From a virus (taxonomy: Duplodnaviria; Heunggongvirae; Uroviricota; Caudoviricetes), in IMG/VR virus record IMGVR_UViG_3300012925_000006: DNA of 64,000 nucleotides; one strand, written 5' to 3'. The translations under genes were made by a program, and so were the position numbers. The notes beneath the pieces were generated by a model. It was given only the letters and a program-made list of their open reading frames with translations, was not told the origin of the DNA and did not search any database. This document shows, one piece after another, positions 7,381-29,700 of this stretch (its first letter is position 1; every line of letters starts with the position of its first letter).

Positions 7381-7490
7381 TGTTGAAATAGTTTATAATA
7401 TCCATATATAAATAAACAGATAGTTAATGCCATAAATAAAATCACAGCCAAGCATCCAATAATTACTTTATCTTTCTTGGGCCGATTCAT
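7377..7490 (-). CDS. 37-aa single-TM protein (MNRPKKDKVIIGCLAVILFMALTICLFIYGYYKLFQQ); its TGA overlaps the endolysin ATG (ATGA)
   Basis: Read by hand; translational coupling to the endolysin. Confidence 0.35.
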   Translation of the reverse strand: MNRPKKDKVIIGCLAVILFMALTICLFIYGYYKLFQQ

Positions 7491-7633
7491 AGAATCTTCT
7501 TAATAGCATCTTCAGCAGCTTTTAGGCGTGCTTCGAATGCTTTGAATTTTTCAGAATGCAGTCCTTGTGTTGATAAAAGAGTGGCGACAGTGCCAACTAC
7601 AATTCCTATGATTAACCATACATACCAAGCCAT
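7487..7633 (-). CDS. 48-aa single-TM protein with an amphipathic tail (MAWYVWLIIGIVVGTVATLLS...); ATGA overlap with the next ORF
   Basis: Read by hand. Confidence 0.35.
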   Translation of the reverse strand: MAWYVWLIIGIVVGTVATLLSTQGLHSEKFKAFEARLKAAEDAIKKIL

Positions 7634-11101: not shown

Positions 11102-14100
11102 TTATGGAACCAAATTCCAATCAAATGAAACTGTACCTGTCAATCCGGCCAAATATGTCACATCAAAAGTTGTTGCTGTTTTATTAGTGACATAAAAAAG
11201 AGCAGCCGATAAAGCACTTGTTGGAGTAACATTTACTTTATAGGTACTATTTGATTCCGTTTTTCCAATTGTTACTGTAAACGTTGTAGTAGCTGTCCCA
11301 ACCTGAGAAACACTTCCAGAAGCATACCCTAAGTTAGATGCGCTTTCCAATATCCAATTAGTGCCATTATACACCAACGTATAGGTCACTCCATTGGGAA
11401 TTGCTGTCACCGTATTCCCTAGATTATCCTTCACCGTTGTTGCAAATGTCCAAGCGAATGCAGAAGTATTAGTATTGAAAATAGTCTGGGTATGGCCGGT
11501 ATTTGTAAATGGTATAGTCAAGGTTCTATTGGCTGTTATTACAGGAAGGTAAACATTGAATGACCCTACGGAGACGGTGGTATTTGCATCTGTAGCTGTA
11601 AGTCCAGAATACTGAGGAGTCCCATATAATGCCAATGTTCCTACAGGAGCCCCTATCGTTATATTGTCGTTTGATCTAATATCCACTTCCCCCAAATTAC
11701 TCGCATTTGTTCCAAGTTCTAATTTGAAAGATCCCCCTGCAATAGCCGTTGGCTGAATCAATGTTCCGCCCCAATAAATACTGTCAGTTGTTGGCGCTCT
11801 AAGACCATTGGCTACCTTTAAATTGAATGTTCCGGATTTTCTATGCGTTTGCCCAGTTGTGGGGTCTACTGTTACGATACTATCATTCGCTCCTGAACTT
11901 GTCAACCCAGTCAGCAACGGTGTTGCTATAGACGGAGAAGTCCCAAATACCAATGGTCCAGTTCCCGTTTCATCAGATATGACTCCTAACAATTGTGCTG
12001 ATGTAGTAGAAGCGAATTGCTGCAATCCTGTTAGTTTATCTGCTACTGTTATATTAGCGTCTGGGAAAGTGGCTGTTCTTGTAGTAGCTGTAGTAATAGA
12101 AGCAGCACTTAGGATAAGCAACTTGGTAGCATCTGAGTTGTTTTTAACTAATGCGGCATTATCCGCAAATGGAGGTGCGCTTCCAGCACCCGCATTAGCT
12201 CTATGCCAACTTCTTGTTGCAACTGTATCTCTTATGGATGCAGAAGAATCTATTATCCAAAGTCCTGTATTGTATTGCATTTGTCCGGCTACAGGAGTAG
12301 TAGTCGGAGGTCCTGCTGTAAATTGTATTGGCGCAAATCCTGCCGTGGCAGTTCCAGCCGAAAGTGTTAGCCACGCACTTCTGGTAGCATTTCCTATTGA
12401 AGTTTTGCCGTCGAATCCAACAGAAAATTTTGCGACATTAGCATTACATGCCTTAAAGAGAGGCATAGTGCTTACAGTTCCATTCACCGATAGTAATGCG
12501 CTGTAATAAGCTACATCAAAATCTGATCCAGGTGCGACGCTATATAACATTCCGGCTGCGGTTCCACTGGTTCCTTTATAATACCATACCGGATTCATAT
12601 CAGTGAAATTCCCAGATAATGTCCCAAATGAAAGATGAGCCGCCGCATATCCAGTTTGTCGGTTATACAGATTAAAAAGTCCGCTAGAACTAGCTACTAT
12701 TTCAGGACCACTAAATGCCAGATTCATTGTAGAATAGCTCTGTCTTGCTTCTCCGCGCACTCTTCCGATTGGGACCAATAATATTTCTAAAGATGATCTT
12801 TGTTCTAAACTATCAAAATGGGCATACTGAACTATAATATTTCCTTTTGTGGAATCATAGAATATTGACGGTTCAAAATAAGTACTGGCGCTATCTGATC
12901 CCAATAAACTGAATAGGGTTCTCCATTGATTTCCAAGACTAAGGGCATTATTTGGCTGATTAAAATCATAATCTTTAGTGCTAGTCAGTAAATCTAAATA
13001 TTTTCTTTGTGATTGTTGAGTAGCCCCCCCCACAGCTTTATTTGCTACTCCTATCATCCAATGCTGTCCATCAATAACAGCTACAGCCGGTTGAGAATAA
13101 GGCGTAGGCATTCCCATATTATAAGAACCCGTCCATGTAGCTCCATTATCTATAGATTGTGCTCCCCACATTTCATATTGAACATTAGTAGAGAACCCAT
13201 ATCTAATAAATTCCCCCGCAGCCTGTGTATCGGGTGTACGTTGCACTATATACATTAAAGGTTCATTCACAACACTATCAGGTGATGTGAATATTTGTGC
13301 AGATAGAGTCCAAGTGACTCCATTATCATCGGAATACATAAATCTTCCTCTAAAATAAGCCAATGACCGGTTAGTGATTTGCCCCAATGGAAAGAACAAT
13401 CGACCAGTTAATTGAGATCTAATAATCCTGTCACCGGAAGAATACCAATATGTACCCGATGCGCTTACTAGCGAATCTACGAATGTAAAATTATTTCCCC
13501 CATTCGTACTTTTCCATCGACAGATAGTACTTTGTAATGGAGTGGTTAAATACTTATTGTTAGTGAAGCAATATATATTACCATTGCCATCATTGTACAG
13601 ACTAGGAGTATTTGTATTTTGTGTAATATTCGGTATTCTTAATCTATTATTTACCCACGTTAGCCCATTATCTCCAGAGGTGGCTCCCCATATATTAGAT
13701 GGCCCTACATCACTTACATTGGAAGTATTAGAATTAGAATATAAAATCAACAAGCTATCTTTGCTTAATCTAATTATTGAACTTTGGTCCATTCGCCAGT
13801 GATTATTTACTGTATCAATCGCTTGAACTACTATTTTCTTAATCACATAAGGTTCAATTTTATATTTTCTAACACCGCTAGTATCTGTTCCATATACTTG
13901 ATAAGGTGGTGGAGTGGCAAGATCATTAACCAATTGCAAAGGAGTTCCAGATGATCCATTTCCTGTTATTGAATTTTGAGAGGTAACCGTTCCAGATGGA
14001 GTAGGAATATTTAATACTCCCGCTACAATGGACGCCGCTCCCGATCCAGTAGTTGTCAAGGAAACATCCGCAGCATTCCCAGATCCATCGTATCCTAACA

Positions 14101-15262
14101 GGGTATTGGCTGTATTTGTAGCCATTTTCCCAAGAGTAACGGCATTGTTAGCAATCTTCCCTGTAGTCACCGCAAGAGGTTGTATAGTTGCCACTGCTGC
14201 TCCCGGTCCTGCTGCTACTACATCTGTTGTCAGAGAGGTTATATAGTTTCCAGTTGCCTGTTTCCCGGCCAAATCTGTCACCAGATTAGTAACTTGGCTT
14301 TCTGCTATTTGGATCGCAGTATTGGAAGCTGCTGTTATTAATCCTTTTGCATTTACAGTAAAAGAACCGACATTGGAAGCCGTTCCGAAAGAACCGATGT
14401 TGCCATTTACGGTTGCTAAAGTAAGCGGAAGATTGGTCCCAGAAACTGTACCTGTAGCATCTCCGGAAGCGGTAGCAAGATTCCCCGACGCTCCATTACC
14501 AGCTATAGTTAACTGTCCTGCTGCATTATAGGTAAGATTACAGTTTGTGCAAGATCCTGCTGTTATTACAGAAGCCAAAGTAACGGGTATCGAAGTGGTC
14601 CCACTACCCGTGGCCCCTCCTGATAAAGTGATCGTTTGGTTTCCTGTTATATATCCCGGTCCATTTGTAAAAGAAGAAAGATTTGTAGGGAAAGTAGCCA
14701 AAGATAAATCTCCCCTAAAATATTGAGAAGTTGATCCAGTTGTAATAGTAGGTTGTTTCCCAGCTAAATCGGTAACCAAATTTGTAACTTGCGCTTCCGG
14801 GATTTGAATGACTATAGAGCCAGCAGCAGTATTCAATCCCTTTCCATTTAAAGTTATCTGTGCTACATGTGAGGCATCTCCAAAAGAACCGGTATTTGTG
14901 TTAACGGTTGCCAAAGTTGCGACTTGACTTCCAGTTCCGGGTCCGGCCAATACATCTCCTGTCAATTGATTAAGACCAGAACCTCCTGTTCCTCCTGAAT
15001 TCTTCTTAATCCATTTATTTCCTATTCTTGTCCACTCAACACTGTCAAATCCTGCGTGTAACCAAAGAATTGTAGTTCCTTGAAATTTTGGAATAAAGTT
15101 AGTATCTCTAAATGCTGGAATGTCCCCACTGTCTCTTTGAAGCCATCCAACACGATAATATCCTGTTGAATATGGGGCGGGTAATCCAGATGGAGCGGGT
15201 GGCTGCGCTTTCAAAGAAATACTTATCAATAAACAAAAAAATATTTTAAATAATAATTTCAT
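11102..15262 (-). CDS. Tail fibre / receptor-binding protein, 1386 aa, with BNR (Asp-box, sialidase-like) repeats and an internal ~170-aa duplication
   Basis: Signal-like N-terminus; Gly/Thr/Ser-rich fibre region; Asp-boxes SGDNGLTW, SDDNGVTW, SIDNGATW; repeated ...IQI(P/A)E(A/S)QVTNLVTDLAGKQ... blocks. Confidence 0.7.
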   Translation of the reverse strand: MKLLFKIFFCLLISISLKAQPPAPSGLPAPYSTGYYRVGWLQRDSGDIPAFRDTNFIPKFQGTTILWLHAGFDSVEWTRIGNKWIKKNSGGTGGSGLNQLTGDVLAGPGTGSQVATLATVNTNTGSFGDASHVAQITLNGKGLNTAAGSIVIQIPEAQVTNLVTDLAGKQPTITTGSTSQYFRGDLSLATFPTNLSSFTNGPGYITGNQTITLSGGATGSGTTSIPVTLASVITAGSCTNCNLTYNAAGQLTIAGNGASGNLATASGDATGTVSGTNLPLTLATVNGNIGSFGTASNVGSFTVNAKGLITAASNTAIQIAESQVTNLVTDLAGKQATGNYITSLTTDVVAAGPGAAVATIQPLAVTTGKIANNAVTLGKMATNTANTLLGYDGSGNAADVSLTTTGSGAASIVAGVLNIPTPSGTVTSQNSITGNGSSGTPLQLVNDLATPPPYQVYGTDTSGVRKYKIEPYVIKKIVVQAIDTVNNHWRMDQSSIIRLSKDSLLILYSNSNTSNVSDVGPSNIWGATSGDNGLTWVNNRLRIPNITQNTNTPSLYNDGNGNIYCFTNNKYLTTPLQSTICRWKSTNGGNNFTFVDSLVSASGTYWYSSGDRIIRSQLTGRLFFPLGQITNRSLAYFRGRFMYSDDNGVTWTLSAQIFTSPDSVVNEPLMYIVQRTPDTQAAGEFIRYGFSTNVQYEMWGAQSIDNGATWTGSYNMGMPTPYSQPAVAVIDGQHWMIGVANKAVGGATQQSQRKYLDLLTSTKDYDFNQPNNALSLGNQWRTLFSLLGSDSASTYFEPSIFYDSTKGNIIVQYAHFDSLEQRSSLEILLVPIGRVRGEARQSYSTMNLAFSGPEIVASSSGLFNLYNRQTGYAAAHLSFGTLSGNFTDMNPVWYYKGTSGTAAGMLYSVAPGSDFDVAYYSALLSVNGTVSTMPLFKACNANVAKFSVGFDGKTSIGNATRSAWLTLSAGTATAGFAPIQFTAGPPTTTPVAGQMQYNTGLWIIDSSASIRDTVATRSWHRANAGAGSAPPFADNAALVKNNSDATKLLILSAASITTATTRTATFPDANITVADKLTGLQQFASTTSAQLLGVISDETGTGPLVFGTSPSIATPLLTGLTSSGANDSIVTVDPTTGQTHRKSGTFNLKVANGLRAPTTDSIYWGGTLIQPTAIAGGSFKLELGTNASNLGEVDIRSNDNITIGAPVGTLALYGTPQYSGLTATDANTTVSVGSFNVYLPVITANRTLTIPFTNTGHTQTIFNTNTSAFAWTFATTVKDNLGNTVTAIPNGVTYTLVYNGTNWILESASNLGYASGSVSQVGTATTTFTVTIGKTESNSTYKVNVTPTSALSAALFYVTNKTATTFDVTYLAGLTGTVSFDWNLVP

Positions 15263-15265
15263 ATT

Positions 15266-17596
15266 TTAAAAATTTACCCATGCCGAACCATTATAGTAAG
15301 ACATTTGATGTAATGTTAAGTCATATACTTCCAATCCTTCGACAGGTGTTGAAATAGCTAATTTCTGAGTAGTGGTCATGGAGGGGGGCTTGAATCCTTG
15401 AGTTGTACTACTCATAAATAACTGAGCCGAAGGAGTAGCTGCTGTAGCGCCCATCCATATAGGTCCATTAAAATAATTAGCGGCTGTCCCGGAAATATTC
15501 AAATTAAATGAACCAGTTTTGGCCGATATTCTACCATCAAAACCCAATACAACCCCAAGACCTCCACTTCCTAAAGTCATATCATCACATATGTAGTGTG
15601 TGAATGTGTTTATATTAGTAAACGTTCCTCCTTGGCTATAAAATCCAAAACCGTGTCCCATAGTTCCGACTGGATTGAATACATTAGTCCGGGAATAATA
15701 TCCATTTAATATGTTCGTTCCTGCATCAATCTTTATCCCGGGCTGTATCCCTATCATATTCCTAGAGCCTTGCGTTGAAGCATGCTCCATAGTAATGTTT
15801 AACGCTATGAGATCGCCAGCTATCGTGGAAGTATCAGGCAATTCTATGTTAAGACGCCCGTTTACGTCCAATTTAGATGTAGGTGTCGTGGTTCCTATAC
15901 CTACAGAATCATTTGTTATGGTTGTGTAATTACCCGTTCTATTCCACGGACTCTGAACAATTGACCATCCGGTACGGGATGTTGGAGTATTTCCTGCTGT
16001 TTTTATATAAAAATTACCACCTGTCAAATCCATATAAGAATCTCCTACTTTTCCAGCAATATTTCCATTTGGCGTTCCCGATCCAGTATGAAAATTTTCT
16101 ATAGTATTGTCAGTTGCGGAATCTTGGGAAGCTATAAAAAAACCACTTGTAGAATCAGGAAGTAAATTACAGCCTCTAATAAATCTATTTCTCTTTGATC
16201 CTCCATGAAAATTCAACAATTGGCTGCTAGGCGCTCCTTTTATAGTACAACCACTGAAAGTATTATCAATAGAGCTTCCAAAGTTCATTGCCAACGTCTT
16301 AGAAGAAGAGTAAAAATCCCCTGAAAAAGATCCATTAATAATATTGTCAACCTGCGTATAGGCGCTGTCTACCGGAATGCTATTATTAGAGGACTTATAA
16401 TCTTTTTGAAATCCTAATTGAGGGCCAATGTCTACGCTATCTGTTACGGAAAAATGATCTACACTATTCCCGTATACATATCCTCCATTCCCTGTCCCAC
16501 CAAAATTTTGGACAGTATATGGAAGGCATTTCTTTTTGCTGCCCGACATTTTCACATTAGAAATAATGCAATATTCTCCCTGAGCATTTTCTACGCCAAT
16601 ATCTTTTGCTCCTTTTATAACTAAATTCTGAACAATAACATATGAACAACTACCCAAACTGACAGCCATCCCATAAAGAGCTTTGCCGCCCAATTCATTA
16701 AAATTACAGTTCAATATTCGACCATTTTTGACATATGGATTATGTCCATCCGATGCTTGAACTCCCAATACTTCAATAGCCATTCTCCCTACACTATCAA
16801 AAATGCAATCTTGAATATCCCAATCCGTTAATACGCCTCCCTGCCCACCTCTCTGTCCTATAAGCACTATTCCATCCGCACAACTATATGGCGCTTTTAT
16901 CAATAAATTATTAAAATGCAATCCCCTTGCAATTACTGCTGTAGTTGGAGCAAGTGTACTAAATTCGGAGATAACAGAAATTCCATTTGTATCCGGCCCA
17001 TTGGATCTATCTAATACAAAATTATTCTGCAATTTCATCGTAGATATTGTCACATTGGAGATGCTGTCTGTATGCAGATCAAATATCTTTGCGACTAAAG
17101 GATCACCAATAATAGCAGTCTTTACTCTATCTAATCCTGTTATAGACACATTACTGGCCGTTAATGTAATCGTACTGCTGATCCTATAAGTTCCATATGG
17201 TAATTGCCAGCATGTGCCAGATATATTAAATATCTGATTAAACAAAGGCGCATTATCCAGCACTCCCGTAGGATCTGCTCCGGCTGATAACACATTCAAT
17301 GCCCCAGTCATATCTCTTACCCATGCTCCTACCGAAGTCGATGGATTTTTGACTATAAATCCTGGAATTGGAGTAGCTGTAGAAGTGGCATCCCAACGAA
17401 ATCTACCTCCACCCCCATCCCCCGGATTACGAAAACCTTGTGTTGTTATAGCCAATCCTGGCGCACCAACCCTTGTAGAAAGACTTGAAATATTCCGAAA
17501 TGACAAAGAAGTCATATTATCTTGTGCCGATAATTTAATCGAAATAAGAATGAATAATATATATACTGTTTTTTTCATTATGCTCTTGCCGACCAA
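15266..17596 (-). CDS. Tailspike-like protein (776 aa), probable right-handed beta-helix polysaccharide depolymerase
   Basis: Signal-like N-terminus; long Asn/Gly/Ser/Thr-rich region with periodic short beta-strand motifs typical of pectate-lyase-fold tailspikes; lies next to the fibre gene. Confidence 0.5.
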   Translation of the reverse strand: MVGKSIMKKTVYILFILISIKLSAQDNMTSLSFRNISSLSTRVGAPGLAITTQGFRNPGDGGGGRFRWDATSTATPIPGFIVKNPSTSVGAWVRDMTGALNVLSAGADPTGVLDNAPLFNQIFNISGTCWQLPYGTYRISSTITLTASNVSITGLDRVKTAIIGDPLVAKIFDLHTDSISNVTISTMKLQNNFVLDRSNGPDTNGISVISEFSTLAPTTAVIARGLHFNNLLIKAPYSCADGIVLIGQRGGQGGVLTDWDIQDCIFDSVGRMAIEVLGVQASDGHNPYVKNGRILNCNFNELGGKALYGMAVSLGSCSYVIVQNLVIKGAKDIGVENAQGEYCIISNVKMSGSKKKCLPYTVQNFGGTGNGGYVYGNSVDHFSVTDSVDIGPQLGFQKDYKSSNNSIPVDSAYTQVDNIINGSFSGDFYSSSKTLAMNFGSSIDNTFSGCTIKGAPSSQLLNFHGGSKRNRFIRGCNLLPDSTSGFFIASQDSATDNTIENFHTGSGTPNGNIAGKVGDSYMDLTGGNFYIKTAGNTPTSRTGWSIVQSPWNRTGNYTTITNDSVGIGTTTPTSKLDVNGRLNIELPDTSTIAGDLIALNITMEHASTQGSRNMIGIQPGIKIDAGTNILNGYYSRTNVFNPVGTMGHGFGFYSQGGTFTNINTFTHYICDDMTLGSGGLGVVLGFDGRISAKTGSFNLNISGTAANYFNGPIWMGATAATPSAQLFMSSTTQGFKPPSMTTTQKLAISTPVEGLEVYDLTLHQMSYYNGSAWVNF

Positions 17597-18252
17597 TAAA
17601 TAATGACATTCCCGGCTCCTAAAGGAGGTGCTGCTCCATAATTAACATAAATATTTGTTGCATCTGCGGTCCTGCTAGCTATTCCAACTGCATCCGAACT
17701 TCCAGCATCGGCGCTTATAAAACTTGGGGTAGTTCCTAAACCATGAGGGATAATAAATTGCAATTGTGTACCTGTACCGCTCTGAATAGAATTTCCTGAA
17801 TTATATCCAGAAGGTACTATTGGAACGCTTCCTGATCCTATGTAGGCATAATAAACACCATAAGTCTGATTATTTGAAACTCCTTGATTAAAGGCAATCA
17901 CTATATCATTGGTATTATAGGCAATTGTATAGCTTATTTGAGTATTATCAGACTGAGGTAAGACGGCTCCATCTAAAACGACAAAAGCACTGAATTGTAC
18001 TATATTGGTTTGGTTAATGGTCAGGACAGTTTCTCCGGCTGCCAAAGGTGATCCAGACTGCCCTATCTTAAATTGAAGTAACCCAAATTTTAGAGATCCC
18101 AATATGCAAGCCTTAACATCAGCCCATACTCTCCGTCCATATTGTCCTAATCCTAATCCGCCCACGGCATTACCTACTAAAAAGTATTCGCTATCTGTTG
18201 GGCATCCTGTAAGTAATGGTAGGCCCGACGCCTCCTGATCGCAATCTGCCAT
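17578..18252 (-). CDS. Putative small tail fibre / receptor-binding tip protein (224 aa)
   Basis: Gly/Ser/Asn-rich composition; position just upstream of the tailspike. Confidence 0.4.
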   Translation of the reverse strand: MADCDQEASGLPLLTGCPTDSEYFLVGNAVGGLGLGQYGRRVWADVKACILGSLKFGLLQFKIGQSGSPLAAGETVLTINQTNIVQFSAFVVLDGAVLPQSDNTQISYTIAYNTNDIVIAFNQGVSNNQTYGVYYAYIGSGSVPIVPSGYNSGNSIQSGTGTQLQFIIPHGLGTTPSFISADAGSSDAVGIASRTADATNIYVNYGAAPPLGAGNVIIYWSARA

Positions 18253-18258
18253 GATACT

Positions 18259-18663
18259 TTAATTAAGATTTATATTACATCCATTAAAAGTCAATCCACA
18301 TCCATTCATCAAAATAATACACTTCCTTACTGGATTTATTTCTCCCAAAACAAGATTACACCCATTCAATTGAAGGTTACACCCATTTACCAGAATAATA
18401 CAAAGCGTTGGGCAGCACTGACAGGAAACACCCCTATATTGATTGAAGTCACTTAAAGATTTGAATTGGGTACTTCCAAACGAATGGTTATTATATTCTA
18501 TTACGAAAACACGTTTGGCTATAATACCCAAATCCTCGTCAAAACTTCTTACTATTGACACACCAATGGGAGTTACTTTGTCGCAAGGAAAATTGAAAAC
18601 CCCTTGAACCGACTGTATTTCCCCATCTATTGTATCTGCAATAAATTGTATTGACTTTGACAC
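18259..18663 (-). CDS. 134-aa protein whose C-terminus carries four tandem Cys-containing repeats (VNGCNLQ / LNGCNLV / MNGCGLT / FNGCNIN)
   Basis: Repeat read from the translation; underlying DNA repeat acatccatt/acacccatt x4 at 18260-18400. Confidence 0.5.
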   Translation of the reverse strand: MSKSIQFIADTIDGEIQSVQGVFNFPCDKVTPIGVSIVRSFDEDLGIIAKRVFVIEYNNHSFGSTQFKSLSDFNQYRGVSCQCCPTLCIILVNGCNLQLNGCNLVLGEINPVRKCIILMNGCGLTFNGCNINLN

Positions 18664-18749: not shown

Positions 18750-20018
18750 TTAAATGAAGGCAATACCAGCCTTGTTTAATTTTTCAAGGGATTTCTTCGC
18801 TTTATCAAGAGAGTCTGTTTTTATGTGAGTATCGAAGCCCTGAATTGAATTGGCAACTTCTTTCGCATTTTTAACTGCCTCTTCCATTGAATTACCTAAT
18901 CCAACAACACTTCCTATATCATTCTCTTTCATTTCTCCCGGAGTATAGTACCAAGTTCCATCATCATCTATGCTGAGATTGGATATTTTTACAAAATCCT
19001 TATACTCATCAGGAACAATTATGGGTGATGGTCTTGTTTCTGAAATATCAGATTTTATTATCAATTGGCATCCCCATTTATATTTAAATTCTATATTTGG
19101 TATTCTCCCATGTGCAACATCCCACACTATTTCTGAATAATTAGTATATGCCTCTAAGGCAAGAGATGTATTAGGCTGTGGACATCTGTTTGTGTTATCA
19201 ATTAAAAAGCCTCTTTTATCCTTAGAAATAATTATTTCGTTGGAATAATGACCACGGTATCCCATATCATTAAATATAGAAGAAAATCCGTCATTAACTG
19301 ATCTAATTTGTTCTGGCAATAATTTATAATAAGTAAAAGTGCCAACATAACAGCAATTTTTTACTTCAATGCCACATAGGGAAATGTCAGGATACTGTCC
19401 ATCAATACAAAACCCATCGTATCCTATTTCTGCAACGGTTTCTATTGGATGCTCTATAATGTATATTTCTCTATTCTCATATAATCCCATATCATGACGT
19501 AATCTTATTAATTCTCTTTTTGATAATCGATAATCCTTATGCTCCCATGTCTCCATATCGCCTCTTAGTGAAGATTTTATATATCTACTGCCTTTGGAAT
19601 TCATTAATATTTGTTCCAATTCATCTAACCCATTTGCAATGGAATATAACCCTACTGGCAACCCTAAATTTTTTAATGTCTCTTTTATAAAAGATCGATC
19701 ATGTTCTAGTCTATCAGCAAACACACTACCAAAAACTGGTTTACCTATACTTCTAATATAATTTTGTAAATTAGGCTCTTGGGACGATGTGAAGTAAACC
19801 ATATCTACTTCATTGATGACAGAAGCCCATTCTTTAACTTTCACAATCCCCAGCACATTTCGACCAATATCAAATGGAGTATGTTCAGGGAATCCATCTA
19901 TTGTATAAGGGCAGTAATAATATACTGTTCCGAAGTCTCTACTTAGTCTTTGAGCTACTTCTATATAGCTCATATAATCATATACCAATACACTTTTATC
20001 CATTAGATCATTCCGCAT
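18750..20018 (-). CDS. ATP-grasp superfamily enzyme (carboxylate-amine/thiol ligase-like), 422 aa
   Basis: Size and layout consistent with pre-ATP-grasp plus ATP-grasp; catalytic-loop-like FLIDNTNRCPQPNTS (ExN-type with Asp), Gly-rich KPVFGS; overlaps the upstream peptidase gene (operon). Confidence 0.5.
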   Translation of the reverse strand: MRNDLMDKSVLVYDYMSYIEVAQRLSRDFGTVYYYCPYTIDGFPEHTPFDIGRNVLGIVKVKEWASVINEVDMVYFTSSQEPNLQNYIRSIGKPVFGSVFADRLEHDRSFIKETLKNLGLPVGLYSIANGLDELEQILMNSKGSRYIKSSLRGDMETWEHKDYRLSKRELIRLRHDMGLYENREIYIIEHPIETVAEIGYDGFCIDGQYPDISLCGIEVKNCCYVGTFTYYKLLPEQIRSVNDGFSSIFNDMGYRGHYSNEIIISKDKRGFLIDNTNRCPQPNTSLALEAYTNYSEIVWDVAHGRIPNIEFKYKWGCQLIIKSDISETRPSPIIVPDEYKDFVKISNLSIDDDGTWYYTPGEMKENDIGSVVGLGNSMEEAVKNAKEVANSIQGFDTHIKTDSLDKAKKSLEKLNKAGIAFI

Positions 20019-20455
20019 ACATCATTTATTTTTGAAGGTTGAATAAACCACCCTTTACCGTATCGTTCACTATACCAATTCTTTTCAAGCAACTCACAAT
20101 CCAATGTTTCTATTTCTCCGGTCGCTGGATTATATATAGTAAAGAATCCGTTCCCCTGACCTAATACAACTGAATAATGCCCCTCTTTCCCTTCTTCGTC
20201 CTCGTATTGATAATTTATAATTGCTGGCAAAAACTCCTGTAAAGAAGATATATGTGAATCGTACCAAGATACCCATTTAAAATTAAAATGAGATAGACCT
20301 TTCCTTATCCCATCATGGCTAGTGCCATCCTGTTCAGTCGTTCCCATTATTATTTCTAATTCTTCAGGAGTAACATGAACAGAATATAACCCCAAAAGGA
20401 AACGTAAGGCATATACCCCACAATTATATTCTTTATTTTGTTTTTGTGGAATCAT
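20003..20455 (-). CDS. Papain-like cysteine peptidase, C39-like (150 aa)
   Basis: N-terminal Q...NCGVYALRFLLGLYSV (Gln oxyanion, Cys nucleophile, as in C39 QxxxxCGxxA) and downstream GHYSVVLG (catalytic His) at C39/CHAP-like spacing. Confidence 0.55.
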   Translation of the reverse strand: MIPQKQNKEYNCGVYALRFLLGLYSVHVTPEELEIIMGTTEQDGTSHDGIRKGLSHFNFKWVSWYDSHISSLQEFLPAIINYQYEDEEGKEGHYSVVLGQGNGFFTIYNPATGEIETLDCELLEKNWYSERYGKGWFIQPSKINDVCGMI

Positions 20456-20949
20456 AGACTTTGCAGGTAAAGATTATATTGCTCACCTTCTCCGTACCAA
20501 TTTTCGAACTTTTCAATGACTTTGGCTCCAAAAAATTCCTGCAATTTAAGGCTTACCCCATCTCTTGCATGACCTAATGCAAATTCATACCCTTTTTCTT
20601 TCCATAAACCTAAGCAGTAAGCCTTCAATATTTTTCCGTAGCCTTTATTTTGGTAATCCGGCAAAATGGTAGTGCTAAACGCATAAATACAATTTTTTCC
20701 ATACCAATCGGTCAGACCATCTTCTAGTTGCTCTTCGTCTGCCGCCCAATCCTTCATGGTATCCAATGGCAGATAATAAGCCTCTCCGATCAATGCCCCG
20801 GATTCTCCATCCACCATGTAAATAAACTTAGCACCATCGTCTTTTAACTCCTGCTTACTTTCTAAATCCCATTGAAGATTTTCTGGATAAACACTTTCGA
20901 AGATTACGCTGTCTTCAAGAGAAACATTACTAGTAAATTTTATTTTCAT
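20452..20949 (-). CDS. GNAT-family acyltransferase (165 aa)
   Basis: Acyl-CoA-binding motif A YQNKGYGKILKAYCL (Q/R-x-x-G-x-G/A) and the surrounding GNAT-like beta/alpha pattern. Confidence 0.65.
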   Translation of the reverse strand: MKIKFTSNVSLEDSVIFESVYPENLQWDLESKQELKDDGAKFIYMVDGESGALIGEAYYLPLDTMKDWAADEEQLEDGLTDWYGKNCIYAFSTTILPDYQNKGYGKILKAYCLGLWKEKGYEFALGHARDGVSLKLQEFFGAKVIEKFENWYGEGEQYNLYLQSL

Positions 20950-20958
20950 ATATTTATT

Positions 20959-22338
20959 TTAAAAGTGACCTTCATCCTTAAGAGCCGAAGCCATATAGAT
21001 TCTGGGGGCCACGTGTGCCCAAATATCATCTTTAGAATCTATTTTTTCTCCTTTGTGTGGGTGTTCTTTTAAAAACTTATCATCCTTCAAAAGACCTTCT
21101 TCATTATATTTTTTCAATAACTTTTTAACCCCGCCTTCCCCACCATTAAAAAAAACTAATGAAAAAAAATCTTCTGCTTTTTTTGACAACTTAATGCCTT
21201 TCTCGGAAGCTTCCTTGTTAACATAATCCTTTCCGAATTTCATTAAGGCTGCCTTTGCTTTCATGCCATCTTCTACTGTTTTAAAATCATTTTCACTAAA
21301 TTCCCCTGCATTCTTTTTTCCTCTAAACTTTGACGCAAATTCTTTTGGCAAATAGCCTCCGGAGACTAATTCTGGAAATCTATTGGCAAAGTCAGGGACT
21401 CCCATACTTTCATTCCCATTTATAGGAAAGTCTTTATCTCCATAAAATGCCTGATAACCGAATTCTCCCGGTTTTTTGTGCCGTGTATCCAATCCTGATT
21501 TATCTTTGAAAAGCGCACTTGCCCCTTCCTGCATGGCACTTGAATATAATAAAGCAGGATCAATACCATATTCTTTAGCGGCTTTTACTGAAATGTTTTT
21601 CATAGTATCCGATCCGCCCCGGGGAACTTCATTTACTTTTAAAACCGTATCCCCTCTCCCTTCTAAATCTCCGTATTTTTTTGACCAGTTTTTCAAATAA
21701 TTAACTCTTGATGCGGTATCGTTATAATTAGGCAACGGTATCCTATCGCCTTCCCCATCCTTCAACTTTTCTGGCCCCTCCTTTTTAGGATCTTCTTTAA
21801 CTACTTCTTTTGTCTTTCCTGTAGAATCAGAGACGGGGAGGGTTGAAAAATCTTTCATGTACGATTCGACATCAGTTCCATAGTTTTTATCTCCTTTTTT
21901 AAACTCAGGATAGTATTGCCTGGACATTCCAGAATTTAAAGGTGTCCCCGGTTCTGATGTCTCTCTTTTTACATAATCAGAACTTAACTGTTTTCTTAAT
22001 ATCCTCGTCTGTTCAGGCGACATGCCAGCGAATGACTCCCCTGATCTTAATTGTTGATGCTCATATTGGACATTTTGGATCATGTCAGCATTGACAGTAG
22101 TATTTGGGTTCTCCTTGCGATACTTTTCAAGATACGAAGCTCCTGCATTTTGATCGGTTTTATCCAAATCCTTTGACCCCGCCACGCCATCTTTCTGCAT
22201 AGCATCCAGAAAATTATTCCAGTCCTTTCGTTGCACTGCCGTAGTAGGCTTATACCCTTTAGGTTTAGTATCCTTCTTTTTGGGGCCTTCTCCTCCTCCA
22301 TCTCCTTCAGGACTATATAATTTAATGATTCTCATCAT
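20959..22338 (-). CDS. Virion-associated protein with a lytic transglycosylase (SLT)-like domain, 459 aa
   Basis: AAKEYGIDPALLYSSAMQEGASALF resembles the SLT catalytic-Glu region (E-S/G-x-x); Lys/Glu-rich flanks; lies between giant structural genes like T7-type ejection proteins. Confidence 0.5.
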   Translation of the reverse strand: MMRIIKLYSPEGDGGGEGPKKKDTKPKGYKPTTAVQRKDWNNFLDAMQKDGVAGSKDLDKTDQNAGASYLEKYRKENPNTTVNADMIQNVQYEHQQLRSGESFAGMSPEQTRILRKQLSSDYVKRETSEPGTPLNSGMSRQYYPEFKKGDKNYGTDVESYMKDFSTLPVSDSTGKTKEVVKEDPKKEGPEKLKDGEGDRIPLPNYNDTASRVNYLKNWSKKYGDLEGRGDTVLKVNEVPRGGSDTMKNISVKAAKEYGIDPALLYSSAMQEGASALFKDKSGLDTRHKKPGEFGYQAFYGDKDFPINGNESMGVPDFANRFPELVSGGYLPKEFASKFRGKKNAGEFSENDFKTVEDGMKAKAALMKFGKDYVNKEASEKGIKLSKKAEDFFSLVFFNGGEGGVKKLLKKYNEEGLLKDDKFLKEHPHKGEKIDSKDDIWAHVAPRIYMASALKDEGHF

Positions 22339-23734: not shown

Positions 23735-26700
23735 TTATTGAGGATCTTCCTTATTTTGCTTGTAAATATCGGCTATTTCTTCATCCAGTTCTTTTAATTT
23801 AGCCGACCGCTGCTCTTCCTTATCCTTTTTGGACAAACTAATATTTGTCATTATTTCAGTTATTTCTTCTCGATATGCTTTCTGGGTTTTAACAGCGGCT
23901 TTATAGTACGCCTCTGAAAGTTCTTCTTTTTTGTCCCCGTATATTGTATGACCACCAATAGAAATATACTTTAAATGATCTGATAAATTGAATGCCTTAC
24001 GTTTCATTGGATTGCCATCAACATCTACATCCTCCCATTGACTAGCAGGCTTTAATCTATCCAATATTTTACCTCCCAAAAACGTAACTAATTCTGCCTG
24101 AGGGATAGAACCAACAACATGCTCTATTTGAGCTACTGCCGAATTGGTAGCCGACTCAACCGTCTCTTTCCCATCGATGATATTATTCCCATACACCTGA
24201 GATAGCCCTAAGCCCATCCCTAAAGGAGAAAAGGCTGCAGTATGTTCAATTACCTTTGCGGCCCATTCCGGCATCTTCCAATCACCAATCCTTATTTCAG
24301 AAGTTTTAATTTCGTCAATTCCTAAATCTTCATCTCTTTTCTTTTTCTTTAGGTCTTCGGCAGATTGTCCTTTATGCGCCCATCCTCCAAATGCAGCATG
24401 ACCTAACAATCCTAAAGCATATAATCCCATTCCAAAGCCTCCCTTTCTAAATGATCTTAAAATAGTAGCTGCTTTATCTGGATCAATTTTATTTAATTGC
24501 TCTTGTAACTCAGTTTTAAATTGTGCAGCATTTTCGGGAGTATATCCATCCTGCAACACTATTCCTTTAGCTTTGTAATATTCCCTTGCAGCCATTACAC
24601 TGCTAGTGATGGCCCCTAAAGTATATTCCATAATACCTTCTCTAATCATATTTACAGGAACTCGGGTAATGGCTACATCTGCTCGCATTAAATAAGCCAA
24701 TCCCTCTCCAAGATGCCTGATTTTTGTATCATCCCTTCCTATTCTTTCCACCGCATTTGTCGCCTGATTCCAGGCATTCGTTATCCAATTCCCTTCTTGG
24801 TATTTACCACGTTCATAATCCAGATAACTTGCATGACCTATTTCTATTATTTTTTCCGGCTTTGAAATATCTATCCCATTAGCCACTGCCCCTTCCAGAC
24901 GGGCCATGAATCCACTAGCAAATTGTGCTCTAGCAGAGAAGTTTTTTAAAGCACCATGCGATCTACCTACGAAATTTAATAGATATTGATAATTGTCTAG
25001 GCTTCTAAGTGATTTCCCATTAAGAATATTTTTCCCTCCCTCCCGGTCCCATGCCTCACGGTCAAAATCTCCAAACTGCCTTTCTATCTGTGAGGATCTG
25101 TGCAAAAGAACCGATATGCCTTCTTTGATGGAAGACCCAGCAATAAACTGGTAAACAGATTGCCCTATTGCATCTATCAAATCATTGTCTTTTTTTTCTT
25201 TCAGTTTTGACAATGTTTTTTCTTCCTCCTTAGAAACATCTTCTTTATTTCCTATTTTTTTATCGATTTCTCCTTTTAATTGATGATAATCTTTAGAAGA
25301 CTGTTCATATTTATTGCTGGCATCAGCATATCTTTTCTCCAATTGCTCTTGACTATACTGCCTAAGATACGCTTCATATGATTTTTTAATTGACTTAAGG
25401 CTTTGACTTTCTCCCCCTAATTTAGCCTGTTCGGTAATAGCCTTGGTAGTTTCAAATGGCAACGCAGCGAATCCTTTTCCAAGGGTAAGTTTAGTCAAAG
25501 CTTCCAATTGAGGTTTTATTACGGCAGACGCTCCAACTTTTAATAAAGTAAAAGGGCTTCCGATCATCTTGGCTACCATAGCTCCCCTCGCAAAATCAGC
25601 AATCCTTTTGAATTTAGACTTATTTTCCTTTTCATAATCCCTCTTCTTATTTCGATAAAGTTGTTGTATAGCGCCCTTATCCCTTTCCAGTTTGATCAAT
25701 TCGGCATCTGTCTTGGTAAGACCTACTACTGGTTCGTCCTCATATTCTCCTTTGGATATTTTCTGAAAATAAGACTCCATATCTCTTTTTGCCTTATCCT
25801 TTGCTCGTTGCAGTTTGATATCTTGGACAGATTCGTCTTTATCAGAAACAAATTTATCAATGACTTTTTGAAGAGCCTTGTTCAAGTCTCCTATTTTAGC
25901 CATATCTCCTGCGGTAGTCCGGGTAAATTCGCTTTTAACTGCTTTCAGAATGGACAGACCTCCATCTAATGTTTTTTCTTGACTAATAGCTGAATTTGGG
26001 TCTAACTTAATTTTAGAGGCGTCCAATTGACCTTTTAGCTTAATCAATGCTTTTTTAGTCGCTGAGGACAAGCTATCATCCTGTAGTTTATTGTCAATTG
26101 TCTTTCCTAAATCGTCAATCCGATCATTGTGTGATTTTGCCCGTTGATCATAGGTTGCTTTGGTGTATTTATCTTCGGATGAAGTTTTAACATTCAGTAA
26201 ATCCATTATAATCTTCTTCTCTTTTTCCTTAGCTTCAATATCCTTGTCGAATGGGGTTTTTGATTTATTACTTCCACGATGATATAACTCCTTCTTTTCT
26301 CTCAGGTCATTAATATCTTTTTCAAGTTTAGTAAGCTTAGTAAAGTTTTTTTCTGATTCCTTTAATGCGGTTTCTAATTCCTTTTTGGTAGGCTGCTTAA
26401 ATTCATCTTCTTTAAGATAGGCTTTCCGTAAAGTGGATTCATCAACATTTGGAAGTACTTTTTTCAGTCCGGCTGTTGCCTCATCGATAATATCTTTGTT
26501 TTCGGTCAATCCTAAATGACTTTTTACATAATCCCGAATAAGATTCTTTGCTACCATATCATTAGTAATATCCGTAGCATTGTTTGACACTGCCAAATCC
26601 TTAATCTTGGCTAAAGATGTTTCCCGGATAGATTTTTCGTTGATTAACTTTTCGTCCAAACCGGCTTCTGTCAATCCTTTTCTTATATGAGTACGTAGTT

Positions 26701-29700
26701 CCTTTTCATCAATTCCATCCCCTTTAAACTTTTCGATAGCAGCCGAAATAATATCAGGAATACGTATATCTCCGGCTGCTATTTTATCAGCAATCCACCG
26801 GATAGCGTCGGCCACATTTTTTTGAATGTTAGCCCCCATCCTTTGCGTACCTTCTGGTAAATTAGCCTGACCAAACTTCTCAAATTTATCGGCAAATGTT
26901 TTAAGGCTTGCAGCTACTTTACCAGCCTTTTCCTTATTAAATTTTTCTGGTTTTGGGGCCTTCCCGGAATCTGCTTTAGCCTTTGCCAATTCTTTGTCGA
27001 ACTTCTCCTGCATCTTTTGGATCTTCAATTCATTCTCAAGTTCCATTATAGCCCTTTCCTTTTCCCATTGTTCGGCTGTAAATTCTAAATCTTTTTCAGT
27101 AAGCTTCTCGCCTCCTTTTGATTTCATGAGATCCATCCTACGAATTTGTAAGCCATGTTCCGGATCATTGGATATTTCCGATTGGAGTATATTAAATGCC
27201 CGACCAGCTTCCCCCCCTGGATTTGTCACCCGGACAACATTGTATAAATCAGCATTTAGGTTGGCAAATTCAGTTTGAGCCGCCAGCCTTTGCATTAGAT
27301 CAGCCGAATCCCATCCCTGTACACTACCCATTCTCCGTAATGTCTCATTTTTGAATACATTAAAGACTGCATTATCTTCAGAGGTAGGGTTAAACAGTAC
27401 TTTATTGTCCAATCTTGTCACGAATTCATTTACTCTGGATTTCAAGGCATCATATAGTCCCTTATCCGGATACATAGTCTGAACATTCGATAACCCTTTT
27501 TCATATGTTTCGGACCATTTTATTTTACCTTGCTTTTCGAACAATTCTTTTGCACCCTCTATCTCTCTGTTCTTTTCTTTTCGAACAGACGTAAATTCCT
27601 CCTTTGGACTTTCCTTTACTACTTTTGGTTTAGGAGATTCCGGAGGAGGGATTTCCCCAGCATCTTTACTTTCAGATTTCTCCTCTTCAGGCTTATTTAC
27701 TGGCTCTTCTTTTTTGACTGATTCTCCCGAAACTTCTTCAGTATTGACAATTGGTTTTTCTTCGGGAGTTTCTGCAAGTCCTCCATTTTCAATTTCTTTT
27801 CGGGTTGGTTCGTCTGAGTTGATGAACTCTTCGAGGGCTGGCTGCTCATTATTTTTGGATATTTCTTTTAAATGAATTTGATAGGCCAAATCTTCGGCAA
27901 CGGGTCCGGTAAAAGTTCTGCGTTCTCCTTCTGGGGTTTTCATACGGACATTTACCACATTCCCATCCTTGTCATAAAGAATAGCATCGGTAGGATCTTG
28001 TCCCCTTGCTTCAAAAGGATTTATGTAGGGTTTACCTCTTACCGTCAGGTTTCCCTCTGGATCGGTATCAACGACGGACTTTTCAGTTCCGATACCCAAT
28101 TCTTTAGCGGACTTGTCGCCTAGTTTATCAGCATTGCCTATCTCATATTCCTTATTAGTTCCTTCCTCCTTGAATATTATAGATTGCCCATCCTGAGATA
28201 GTATTCCTTTCTTTCCTTTATAGGTGACAGGCTTGCCAATCATTTCGCTTATAGTAATATTATCTTCCGGACTGGCTTTTAATTCAGTCCGTTTATCGTC
28301 GATCATTTTATCCTGTTCGGCCTCACTCAACTTAGAAAACTTTTCTTTTTCTTCGGGAGTAAAAAAGTCTGATTGTGAAAAATAATCATCCCTAATATTA
28401 GGCTTATATTCTCCTTCAGGAGGTTTGCCCGGTGTCGACTCTTTTTTGGCTTCAGTTGGTTCAGCCTTTTCTTCCAGTGGATACATAACCTTTGCTAGGT
28501 CTACAATATCATCCCCATATGCTATTCTTGCTTCAATTTCAGCATCCGGACGTAGTGAAATAGATCCGTCGGCATTCCTACCTAAAGCCTGATCAGAAAC
28601 ATCCTTAAAGAATGTCTCCGGATTCTTTTTAGCCACCTCATAATAAACTCCTAACTTTTCTTTATTTTCTTCGATAAGATTAAGAGAATGTTCTTCAATG
28701 CCTTTCCCCTCAACTACAGATTCATTCTTTGCCTCTACATGTTCTTTATACTTCTGTGAAAAGTCCTTATCATCACTGGAATGGACTCCTTCAACAGTCT
28801 GATCAATAATCCATTTGCCTATGGTTCCTTCCTGATCTAAAACCTTGAATGATTTATCAGACATAAATATAGGCTGCCCCTGATCATTGGTCAGGTAATG
28901 GTATTTTGCTTCTCCATTGGAAACTGCCTTTGCCTGTTCCCTATACTCTTTTGCCTTATCAGAATAAAGGGATGAAAGGCTTTTATTGTCTTTATTCTGT
29001 TCGGCCAAGAAATCGTGTTGATCTGCAAGGGCCAAATTATGGGCTTGGTATAAATCATTTATTTTAGCGGGATCAAGATTAGCGGATTTTATATTCCTAT
29101 CTAAATTGACGCTGTATAAAAGCTGATTCTTAGTATCAGACAATTGCCTTTGCCCGGCTTCATCCAATGTGATAGGGTCCGTATTAAATATATGTAATTT
29201 CAATGCGTCCCGTAAGAAGTTCCCACTACCGGACATTTCTTGCTGTAAGGCATAGTTCTGAGGGATAAGGTTTCTAAATTCTCCTTCGGATGTGTGGATC
29301 ATTTTAGCCCAATTATCCACAGATTTCATATAATCCCCGGGTGCATGTAAAAGAGACAATCCCCCACCTACGACCATTCCGTTTATCAAATTGTCTTTGA
29401 AGTCTTTAGACTGCATATAGTCCCAAAAGTCAGTCTTTTCTCCTTTCGCTTCCTTCATATTGGCATAGCTTTCATATCCCTGCCATGTAAAGAAAGGCTG
29501 GGCAATAGCGGCTCCTGCCAATCCTTTACCTGCTGTTGCCAATAAAGAAGGTTTAGCTATATTCTTAGCCTTTAAAAGAGTACCGGACGTAGCGGCCATC
29601 ATTAGGACATTAGGGAGAATGCTACGCTCCATATCTCTTGCCATAAAATGAGAGGCATCCTCTTCTGTCAACATATTTCCCTGTGCATCTCTTGTGTTTA

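Follow-up and report, generated by a model that had tools for sequence, protein, structure and literature searches.

The ATP-grasp ligase encoded by this phage belongs to the core genes of an uncultivated lineage. The GNAT acetyltransferase and the C39-type cysteine peptidase encoded just upstream of it are accessory. All three genes lie in the window, by which we mean the whole 64,000-nucleotide stretch of DNA that was analysed. The best explanation of the setting is that the source phage belongs to an uncultivated lineage and that the trio are late genes of a block of ejection-protein and tail-fibre genes. Our best guess is that these enzymes of the ejection-protein block are produced late and modify a protein of the host or of the phage, and we give this reading a probability of roughly 35%. 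The folds, the intact active-site residues, the synteny, the split between core and accessory genes and the swapping of cassettes are directly established.

Layout of the locus

The trio is on the minus strand and runs head to tail. The GNAT gene (165 aa, 20452..20949) comes first, followed by the C39 peptidase gene (150 aa, 20003..20455) and the ligase gene (422 aa, 18750..20018). Inspection of the junction letters puts the GNAT ATG 9 nt after the stop of the preceding gene, which encodes a 459-aa protein (20959..22338, minus strand). The GNAT and C39 genes overlap by the 4 nt ATGA. The overlap between the C39 TAA and the ligase depends on where the ligase starts. It is 16 nt with the ATG at 20018 and 1 nt with the ATG at 20003. 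The later start gives a protein of 417 aa, and the identical JGI protein P0001 is 417 aa long, which is consistent with it. An earlier reading made from the sequence alone had described three overlapping minus-strand frames packed like an operon. Its coordinates are right and the 9-nt gap and the overlaps bear out the packing, with the proviso that its 16-nt overlap may be 1 nt. Scans for promoters and terminators found sites no more often than chance.

Every gene in the block is on the minus strand. A giant 2619-aa protein (23735..31594), presumed to be an ejection or internal virion protein, is the conserved landmark upstream of the ligase block. A conserved 134-aa protein (18259..18663) is downstream of the ligase. 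A conserved small protein of 224 aa (17578..18252) follows, just upstream of the tail-fibre-like genes. Two large fibre/spike-like proteins of 776 aa and 1386 aa (11102..17596) form the downstream edge. The larger has a BNR_2 sialidase-like domain, and relatives have large fibre-like ORFs at the equivalent position. The large terminase is nearest to those of Flavobacterium phages named as podoviruses, at about 24% identity.

The smaller neighbours are conserved proteins outside the profile libraries. The 459-aa protein and the 224-aa protein both have homologues at the matching position in relatives; in most loci those of the former sit before the slot that precedes the ligase. The N-terminal module of the 459-aa protein is conserved, with a GGG motif near residue 15; only some relatives have the C-terminal half. 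The protein has no Pfam, PHROG, NCBIfam or PDB profile match. An SLT domain had been read into it from the sequence, and neither Pfam nor the PDB profile search supports this. The 134-aa and 224-aa proteins match nothing above threshold in Pfam, PHROGs or NCBIfam. An alignment of 13 homologues of the 134-aa protein, drawn from loci with and without C39, shows it equally conserved in both. Its N-terminal domain is followed by a C-terminal tail with almost no Asp or Glu, in which there are one or two Cys repeats of the form NGCxLxxNGCxVxLN.

The giant protein of the window has no Pfam or PHROG match and no recognisable PolyVal domain. In one relative the giant protein at the equivalent position has a Kinase-PolyVal domain. 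Another relative encodes a further giant protein, downstream of the ligase, with an ART-PolyVal domain.

The ligase is a PurD-like ATP-grasp enzyme

The ligase was recognised by fold and by profile alignment. Its AF2 model has a pLDDT of 92.5. The best Foldseek match in the PDB is GAR synthetase (PurD, 2yw2), which covers the full length at E=4.6e-21 and TM 0.73. Biotin carboxylase and PurK come after it. At E<=1e-3 the model has 685 matches in the PDB, and the best 50 of the 685 are all ATP-grasp enzymes. The AF2 model and Foldseek thus agree on a three-domain ATP-grasp fold, as the sequence-only reading had proposed. An hhalign comparison with E. coli PurD and the PDB profile search are both co-linear across residues 9-392. 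Identity to PurD in the fold comparison is 12-15%.

Sequence models alone do not reveal this. No Pfam ATP-grasp family matches at E<0.1, there is no PHROG family, and no curated ATP-grasp model in Pfam or NCBIfam is matched above threshold. The NCBIfam purD model TIGR00877 gives a partial match at E=2.9e-5, with 23 bits against a cut-off of 288. In the BFVD viral fold library there is no full-length match, and the best TM is 0.47.

The ligase has the length (about 420 aa) and the full-length domain order of the PurD/PurK/PurT/biotin-carboxylase branch. The residues E105, R108, K148, R152-G153, E197, E218, K220, E261, D274 and R278 are invariant across the family. K148 corresponds to the ATP-binding K145 of PurD and R278 to its catalytic R290. 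The LE..(K/R) motif and the acidic Mg ligands also appear to be common to the two. The segment FLIDNTNR, picked out earlier as a likely catalytic loop, does align with IEFNCR of PurD. The loop itself differs. PurD has E-x-N-x-R and the phage family has D-x-[T/C]-x-R, so that the canonical Mg-binding Asn is Thr or Cys in every member examined. Because of this replacement the chemistry may depart from that of standard ATP-grasp enzymes. The position of GNGGREHA in PurD reads YDYGNY in the phage family, and that of RFGDPET reads R-x-P-x-P-P-T. In our best explanation, the 422-aa protein descends from PurD and is a catalytically competent ATP-grasp ligase of the carboxylate-amine kind.

A phage-only family in virion modules

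We compared about 60 loci with related ligases. The ligase has 181 close homologues, and an exhaustive search collected a family of 1470 clusters at 50% identity. Two homologues bear the pipeline label 'phosphoribosylamine-glycine ligase'. Among deposited phage genomes we found only one weak relative. A scan of 185,579 bacterial and archaeal genomes by short peptide patterns, which can miss distant relatives, yielded no relative. PurD differs from the family in this respect, since the phage ligases are on phage contigs and in virion modules. Judged by these sequence comparisons, the family is large, phage-only and previously undescribed, and it is always found within virion gene modules.

A homologue of the giant protein precedes the ligase in most of 56 loci. 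In more distant phages the ligase comes after the portal (L040, L053 and the Aquificae JCS virus) or after tail-fibre or virion structural genes (L042, L047 and L051). Wall hydrolases are sometimes close by. A CHAP protein is encoded directly downstream of the ligase in five loci (L007, L008, L013, L014 and L064), and weak SLT-like and NlpC/P60 matches flank it in L005. The Aquificae virus has a holin and a lytic transglycosylase just upstream of its portal.

The ligases of some relatives have inteins in three invariant motifs, an argument for a conserved enzyme that works. Among the best 150 family members, about 7 are extended at the N-terminus by a segment with HAD motif I; for two of these Pfam confirms the HAD assignment. 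An acylphosphatase domain (E=6e-14) is present in one member. Literature searches turned up nothing on this gene set in phages, in agreement with the earlier statement that its function is not established.

The GNAT and the C39 peptidase

The GNAT matches Pfam Acetyltransf_1 (PF00583) at E=3.3e-5, with 24.6 bits against a gathering cut-off of 20.7. It has the Q/R-x-x-G-x-G/A acetyl-CoA motif as Q100-x-x-G103-x-G105 (QNKGYG), which is invariant in 16 homologues, as are E56, H127 and Y161. The first assignment of this protein was therefore correct. Against PDB profiles it gives weak matches to the protein acetyltransferases RimI, Naa50 and MYST. We found 40 GNAT homologues on contigs shared with C39. 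The most distant GNAT relative (41% identity) is in a bacterial-looking polyketide/radical-SAM setting without C39, so it is uninformative on the cassette.

The 150-aa protein matches Pfam Peptidase_C39 (PF03412) at E=4e-15, with 56.3 bits against a cut-off of 22. The residues Q6, C12, H93 and N109 are invariant in 14 homologues and supply the Gln/Cys/His/Asp(Asn) catalytic set. It is thus papain-like and of the C39 type, as had been suspected, and its Cys-His site (C12, H93) is intact. The AF2 model has a pLDDT of 90.7. Foldseek matches it to the peptidase domain of ComA (TM 0.74/0.81), to PCAT1, to LahT150 (rmsd 2.0) and to the endoisopeptidase PeiR (TM 0.75). The TM range for ComA, LahT150 and PCAT1 is 0.74-0.82, which places the protein in the C39 fold. 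Delivered toxins are also among the fold matches (9l5u and the CdiA-CT domain 8ssk). In a PDB profile search the top match of the family is PeiR (E=2.5e-4).

ComA, PCAT1 and LahT150 share the Gln/Cys/His and Asn(Asp) set with the phage protein and superpose at an rmsd of 2-3 A. The phage enzyme differs from them in that it is free-standing, has no ABC transporter and no Gly-Gly leader substrate that we could identify, and comes from a lytic-type phage. Its similarity to the pseudomurein endoisopeptidase PeiR is just as close. No Gly-Gly substrate was seen to co-vary with C39; the GGG of the 459-aa protein and an NAVGG in the 224-aa protein are conserved in genomes without C39 too. The bacterial-genome scan by short peptide patterns found no relatives of the peptidase.

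Exchangeable partners of the ligase

The GNAT and C39 genes are always paired in ligase loci. We saw the pair at 9 places on 8 distinct contigs, and each time GNAT comes first, C39 second and the ligase third (the GNAT gene call in L063 is only a 107-aa fragment). This is a minority of the loci. Most ligase relatives have neither gene, so the trio is not an obligate unit and the ligase is not regularly inherited together with the other two. In close relatives the slot just upstream of the ligase holds instead either p128, a 128-aa protein with the motif HELxE...D...EH, or an M28-like protein. p128 and the GNAT-C39 pair never co-occur. In a rough tree the partner types are interleaved among sister ligases. 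GNAT and C39 are a separable two-gene cassette, one of several exchangeable partners. It must be noted that the slot contains homing endonucleases in some loci, so GNAT and C39 could be an unrelated hot-spot insertion.

The other partners are harder to place. p128 matches nothing above threshold in Pfam, PHROGs or NCBIfam and has no related PDB chain. Comparisons of p128 with C39 by hhalign, with the protein encoded before the ligase in the Aquificae virus and with the HAD-type extensions of the ligase showed no relation. The M28-like call comes from one sub-threshold Pfam match (E=0.012) and motifs read by eye; the PDB profile search gave it no support.

What the enzymes may do

We propose that the trio is made alongside the ejection proteins and is probably packaged or delivered with them. 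Once delivered, the enzymes would act on a protein target in the host cytoplasm, which contains ATP. At the expense of ATP, the ligase would make first an acyl-phosphate and then an amide, and so would attach an amide-linked group. The substrate of the C39 enzyme would be a peptide or isopeptide bond at a site of small residues (Gly-Gly type), and that of the RimI-like GNAT an amine, which it would acetylate. The fast exchange of partners may reflect an arms race over the target. Packaging, the target and any cooperation among the three enzymes are inferred.

There is a partial precedent. Passages of Iyer et al. 2017 (PMC5512222) argue that polyvalent proteins are packaged and injected, and likewise solo RimI-like GNATs encoded among late structural genes. 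As in the systems those passages describe, GNAT and peptidase genes here lie close to a giant, presumably virion-associated protein, and giant proteins of relatives have PolyVal-type kinase and ART domains. The likeness is not complete, since in the passages searched 'ATP-grasp' is used for RNA ligases only, and neither 'papain' nor 'C39' is found anywhere in the paper. Two points count against a protein target. The nearest relatives of the ligase (PurD, PurK and biotin carboxylase) are all small-molecule enzymes. The HAD and acylphosphatase fusions suit a phosphorylated small molecule or a glycan as substrate at least as well as they suit a protein.

One can imagine that nothing is packaged and that the ligase modifies a phage structural or ejection protein late in infection, by amino-acid addition or by an isopeptide link. 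C39 would then remove a propeptide and the GNAT would cap the new N-terminus. We consider such virion maturation possible but unlikely. The ligase is always in morphogenesis modules, and in some lineages it is post-portal, the usual place of head-maturation genes. The genes of the trio look translationally coupled, and the constant pairing of GNAT with C39 suits cleavage followed by N-acetylation. However, no conserved cleavage motif follows the presence of C39, most relatives have neither C39 nor GNAT and cope, and it is difficult to accommodate the fusions to HAD and acylphosphatase.

Those fusions fit better with another scenario that we also hold to be unlikely, and to a similar degree. 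The ligase would join a carboxylate to a phosphorylated amine of a small molecule or glycan (or the reverse), a phosphatase would remove the phosphate, and GNAT and C39 would be unrelated hot-spot genes. PurD is the top fold and profile match of the ligase, and its partial NCBIfam match is purD. There is precedent in the Campylobacter jejuni capsule, where the ATP-grasp amidoligase Cj1438C is followed by the HAD phosphatase Cj1435 (PMC11800379). Some of the phage ligases have this same combination as a fusion. The window ligase does not have a HAD partner, and no glycan pathway genes were seen nearby. The homing endonucleases in the slot and the sialidase-like domain of the adjacent fibre-like protein also favour the idea. 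On the other hand, the GGREHA-type N-terminal motif of PurD is not conserved. Auxiliary metabolic enzymes are usually sporadic and are rarely core genes within virion modules. Some partners have peptidase folds (C39 for one, possibly also the M28-like protein), and GNAT, C39 and ligase follow each other in this strict order in every context seen.

A role at the cell wall seems somewhat less likely again. C39 would be a peptidoglycan endo(iso)peptidase like PeiR and PeiW, enzymes of the archaeal-virus type, and the GNAT and ligase would modify amines or carboxylates on the stem peptides of cytoplasmic precursors. Their combined action would weaken the wall for entry or lysis. The profile and fold matches of C39 to PeiR agree with this, and the wall hydrolases described above recur within a few genes of the ligase. 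This proximity is weak evidence, because virion-associated lysins are expected in any ejection block. The fold matches of C39 to bacteriocin double-glycine peptidases are equal or better, an ATP-dependent enzyme could not work in the periplasm, and the SLT assignments in the 459-aa protein and in L005 are below threshold.

We regard as improbable a more specific proposal, in which the whole ligase family is an unrecognised component of virion and ejection modules that carries out ATP-dependent protein ligation, delivered with the ejection proteins or acting on them. In one version for the C39-bearing lineage, cleavage by the double-glycine peptidase would leave a glycine exposed at a C-terminus. 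Just as its PurD ancestor activates the carboxylate of glycine, the ligase would then turn this residue into an acyl-phosphate and couple it to an amine. The resulting glycine joining would amount to a ubiquitin-like conjugation made from different parts. p128, the M28-like protein, GNAT with C39, and the fused phosphatases would tune or edit the ligation.

The sequence-only reading had likened the trio to a microviridin or graspetide cluster and to peptide tagging. Microviridin clusters include a role for a GNAT, so the enzyme classes (ATP-grasp, C39 and GNAT) are indeed alike. In such a RiPP cluster the ATP-grasp enzyme would cyclise a precursor, C39 would remove its leader and the GNAT would acetylate the product. 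C39-ABC transporters are the commonest neighbours of graspetide ligases (PMC8939145), and a small Cys-rich protein adjoins the ligase here. We nevertheless find this very improbable. Graspetide macrocyclases are RimK-type proteins of 300-350 aa (roughly 320), whereas the phage ligase is a PurD-like, four-domain protein of 422 aa with N- and C-terminal domains. It belongs to a different ATP-grasp clade, and no model of RimK or of graspetide ligases matched it. Most genomes have the ligase without C39 or GNAT, and an ABC transporter is absent. In its tail the 134-aa protein has almost none of the Asp/Glu required for lactone or lactam rings, and the protein is conserved regardless of C39. Reading the ORFs of at least 20 aa between 17.5 and 23.8 kb by eye, we saw no evident precursor, neither one with a Gly-Gly leader nor one that combines a leader with a core of Thr/Ser/Lys and Asp/Glu, so the analogy is unsupported. 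What stands of the first interpretation is the three folds and their tight packing.

It is hardly credible that the ligase is a true PurD, an auxiliary purine-biosynthesis gene, since against the label of two homologues and the partial TIGR00877 match stand a score far below the equivalog cut-off, 12-15% identity, the absence of the N-terminal and RFGDPE-type signature motifs from the alignment, and the place of the gene as a core gene in a structural module.

Implications

Our preferred reading remains that of late-made, protein-modifying enzymes of the ejection-protein block. The broader idea, first raised from the sequence, that a virion or host molecule is covalently modified may still be right. 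To our knowledge, ATP-consuming enzymes are not expected among virion and ejection genes. The ligase family is abundant and conserved across very different phages, yet it is absent from Pfam and PHROGs. Our analysis corrects a tempting wrong annotation, as a RiPP cluster or as PurD. The mutually exclusive partner cassettes are a natural experiment on function. The substrate of the ligase could expose a new step of infection or assembly. Such a step could be the tagging of proteins, the modification of a host target during entry or a change to the envelope.

A putative PurD-derived ligase

The 422-aa protein (18750-20018, - strand) was called an ATP-grasp ligase in the sequence-only reading, and its AF2 model (pLDDT 92.5) is indeed a full-length ATP-grasp enzyme. 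It matched no Pfam or PHROG family. Its closest structure is the GAR synthetase PurD (E=4.6e-21, TM 0.73), with biotin carboxylases and PurK next, and the family profile aligns co-linearly with PurD. The segment FLIDNTNR falls on IEFNCR of PurD, so it can be kept as the catalytic loop it was thought to be. K148, E197, E261, D274 and R278 are invariant in the family. The usual Mg-binding Asn of ATP-grasp enzymes, however, is replaced by Thr or Cys family-wide, and the N-terminal substrate motif of PurD is not conserved. We argue from the fold match, the alignment and these differences in loop and motif that the ligase is probably derived from PurD, and is neither PurD itself nor a macrocyclase of the RimK/microviridin type. 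A true PurD role does not fit the model score or the motifs.

The 181 close homologues come from metagenomic contigs, many of 60-100 kb and the longest about 100 kb. HMMER, run exhaustively, gave 1470 cluster representatives, and 847 of these reach E<=1e-30. No relative turned up when 185,579 prokaryotic genomes were scanned with sequence patterns, and the only one seen among deposited phage genomes is weak and belongs to an Aquificae hot-spring virus. About 7 of the best 150 of the 1470 representatives have an N-terminal extension of 120-135 aa bearing the HAD motif DxDxT, and in two of these (P0229, P0263) the HAD domain is confirmed by Pfam; one family member (P0262) has an acylphosphatase domain (E=6e-14). 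These fusions hint that the substrate is phosphorylated or that an acyl-phosphate intermediate is edited.

In relatives (L024:7715-10081, L045:6396-8675, L035:2045-4450) the ligase is split at three different sites by inteins that carry LAGLIDADG domains. All the sites are within invariant motifs: after E197, after K220-D221, and between T276 and C277 in the catalytic loop. Some 12 of the best 150 of the 1470 representatives are 758-812 aa long with two matched stretches, as expected of intein carriers; the window copy is intein-free. This placement within invariant motifs argues for a conserved working enzyme. GIY-YIG, HNH and NUMOD3 genes are scattered across the ligase region of relatives, and the window has a separate HNH endonuclease (10541-11092, -). 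Three paralogous window genes (46422-47069, 59774-60463 and 34304-35140, all -) resemble an inserted ORF next to the ligase of relative L010 (tblastn E 1e-27 to 1e-41). They have no Pfam match and may be homing-endonuclease-like.

Genomic setting

Neighbours were mapped for 56 fetched ligase loci. A homologue of the window's giant protein precedes the ligase in most of them. One relative has a Kinase-PolyVal domain in the giant protein at that upstream position, and in another a second giant, on the downstream side of the ligase, bears ART-PolyVal (L007:1-4590 and the ENA contig of P0156). No domain was recognised in the window's own 2619-aa giant. In distant lineages (26-35% identity) the ligase follows the portal in L040/L053 and the Aquificae virus, and at L042, L047 and L051 it follows tail-fibre or virion structural genes. 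Since placement beside giant, portal and fibre or structural genes recurs, the ligase is a conserved resident of virion modules. Cell-wall hydrolase domains also recur near it.

The minus-strand order in the window is the 2619-aa giant, a plus-strand insertion, the 459-aa protein, GNAT, C39, ligase, a 134-aa and a 224-aa protein, and two fibre-like proteins. The insertion (22400-23374, +) is a lone gene, encoding a zinc ribbon of the IS1595 transposase type (Pfam E=8e-9; phrog_25593), that breaks an otherwise minus-strand late operon. The window phage is very divergent. Apart from phrog_25593, only its large terminase (55784-57766) has a PHROG match, and the nearest cultured relatives of this terminase are Flavobacterium phages named as podoviruses, at ~24% identity.

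The claim of three minus-strand ORFs overlapping head to tail was exact in its coordinates, and the 4-nt and 16-nt overlaps were read from the junctions. The 459-aa gene (20959-22338, -) stops 9 nt before the start of the acetyltransferase GNAT (20452-20949, -, 165 aa), which shares ATGA with the peptidase C39 (20003-20455, -, 150 aa). The C39 stop TAA is within the first codons of the ligase, an overlap of 16 nt, or of 1 nt should translation begin at the second ATG (20003). A gap of 86 nt separates the ligase from the next gene. Simple scans for promoters and terminators gave no excess of sites over chance.

Several flanking proteins deserve description. The 459-aa protein and its homologues have a conserved M..LYSP...GGG(E) in residues 1-20 and then a Lys/Pro-rich stretch, and their C-terminal half is absent where relatives carry a separate CHAP protein. 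An SLT domain had been assigned to it, which Pfam and PDB profile searches did not bear out. The 134-aa protein (18259-18663, -), which matches no family, combines a conserved N-terminal domain with one or two NGCxLxxNGCxVxLN repeats towards its C-terminus, usually ending Leu-Asn. Its conservation downstream of the ligase does not depend on the partner cassette. Both fibre-like proteins (15266-17596 and 11102-15262, -) have a hydrophobic, signal-peptide-like N-terminus ending SAQ or KAQ, which is unusual in virion proteins; the larger (11102-15262) carries a BNR sialidase-like domain. Beyond them is a 196-aa protein (5507-6097, -) in which Pfam finds an SPFH/Band 7 domain (E=1e-12).

Partner cassettes

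The assignment of the 150-aa protein as a C39-type peptidase is solid. Pfam Peptidase_C39 matches at E=4e-15, and Q6, C12, H93 and N109 are invariant among 14 homologues. Its AF2 model (pLDDT 90.7) has TM 0.74-0.82 to the double-glycine peptidase domains of ComA, PCAT1 and LahT150. Its similarity to PeiR, a pseudomurein endoisopeptidase, is just as strong (E=2.5e-4, the top PDB profile match; TM 0.75), and papain-like delivered toxins are among its fold matches. The GNAT call also holds (Pfam Acetyltransf_1, 24.6 bits, threshold 20.7), with an invariant Q-x-x-G-x-G acetyl-CoA motif. Against PDB its profile gives only weak similarities, all among protein N-acetyltransferases (RimI and Naa50, for example).

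GNAT and C39 are always found together. They adjoin the ligase at 9 places, which are 8 distinct contigs (the window, L004/L030/L062 as one contig, L007, L008, L063, L064 and two others recorded without DNA). The GNAT call in L063 is only a 107-aa fragment. Outside this count, the contig L061 stops just past the pair. Order at these loci is constant: giant, 459-like, GNAT, C39, an occasional homing endonuclease, ligase. Both genes are strongly conserved, with identities of 63-83% (C39) and 55-76% (GNAT). The proposed trio thus does co-occur, but most ligase loci are without GNAT or C39, and it is not a unit.

The commonest ligase neighbour is p128, a 128-aa protein in the slot directly upstream at ~17 distinct loci (e.g. 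L013:7609-7998). Its invariant motifs are GDY, HELxE, D, ExG, Y (as PY), H (as EH) and E, and searches of Pfam, PHROGs, NCBIfam and PDB detected nothing related to it. At the most distant ligase locus, L006, p128 lies immediately downstream (7248-7628; E=3e-33), so the pairing is old and outlasts rearrangement. At three loci there is a 190-aa protein that weakly matches M28 peptidases (E=0.012), which a PDB profile search did not confirm, and about a dozen carry none of these partners. Among mapped loci p128 and GNAT+C39 are mutually exclusive, and the window is without p128. In a rough neighbour-joining ligase tree, where some labels were inferred by pairing contigs of equal length from different searches, sister branches mix the partner types: L008 (C39) pairs with L013/L014 (p128), L037 (p128) with L038 (M28-like), and L001 (p128) with L045 (M28-like). 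The pattern is one of cassette swapping directly upstream of a fixed enzyme.

Possible functions

We rank first, at a probability of roughly 0.35, a scenario where the enzymes would be synthesised together with ejection proteins, probably enter the host beside them, and there alter a protein in the cytoplasm. We favor this because giant proteins adjoin, C39-like folds occur in delivered toxins, partner turnover is conflict-like, and Iyer et al. 2017 (PMC5512222) propose packaging for solo RimI-like GNATs encoded among late genes. A role in maturing a virion protein is ranked second and seems unlikely. Amidation of a small molecule or glycan with a phosphatase step, ranked third, is similarly improbable, and is favored by the PurD ancestry, the phosphatase fusions and the precedent of Cj1438C/Cj1435 (PMC11800379). 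A cell-wall-directed set is more doubtful still. A CHAP protein is directly downstream of the ligase in five loci, L005 has weak SLT-like and NlpC/P60 matches nearby, and a holin and a lytic transglycosylase are encoded near the ligase of the Aquificae virus. Across these readings, no Gly-Gly substrate co-varying with C39 was found, and the Gly run of the 459-aa protein is conserved in genomes with and without C39. C39-ABC transporters are real neighbours of graspetide ligases (PMC8939145), but the suggested analogy with RiPP/graspetide clusters fails because the ligase clade differs, no precursor was found, a transporter is missing, and the linkage is not obligate.

The folds are known; a literature search found no treatment of the ligase family, its virion-module placement or the partner system, and these are undescribed. 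What remains is a predicted ATP-dependent amide ligase fixed in virion/ejection modules, whose exchangeable partners are hydrolases or a transferase.
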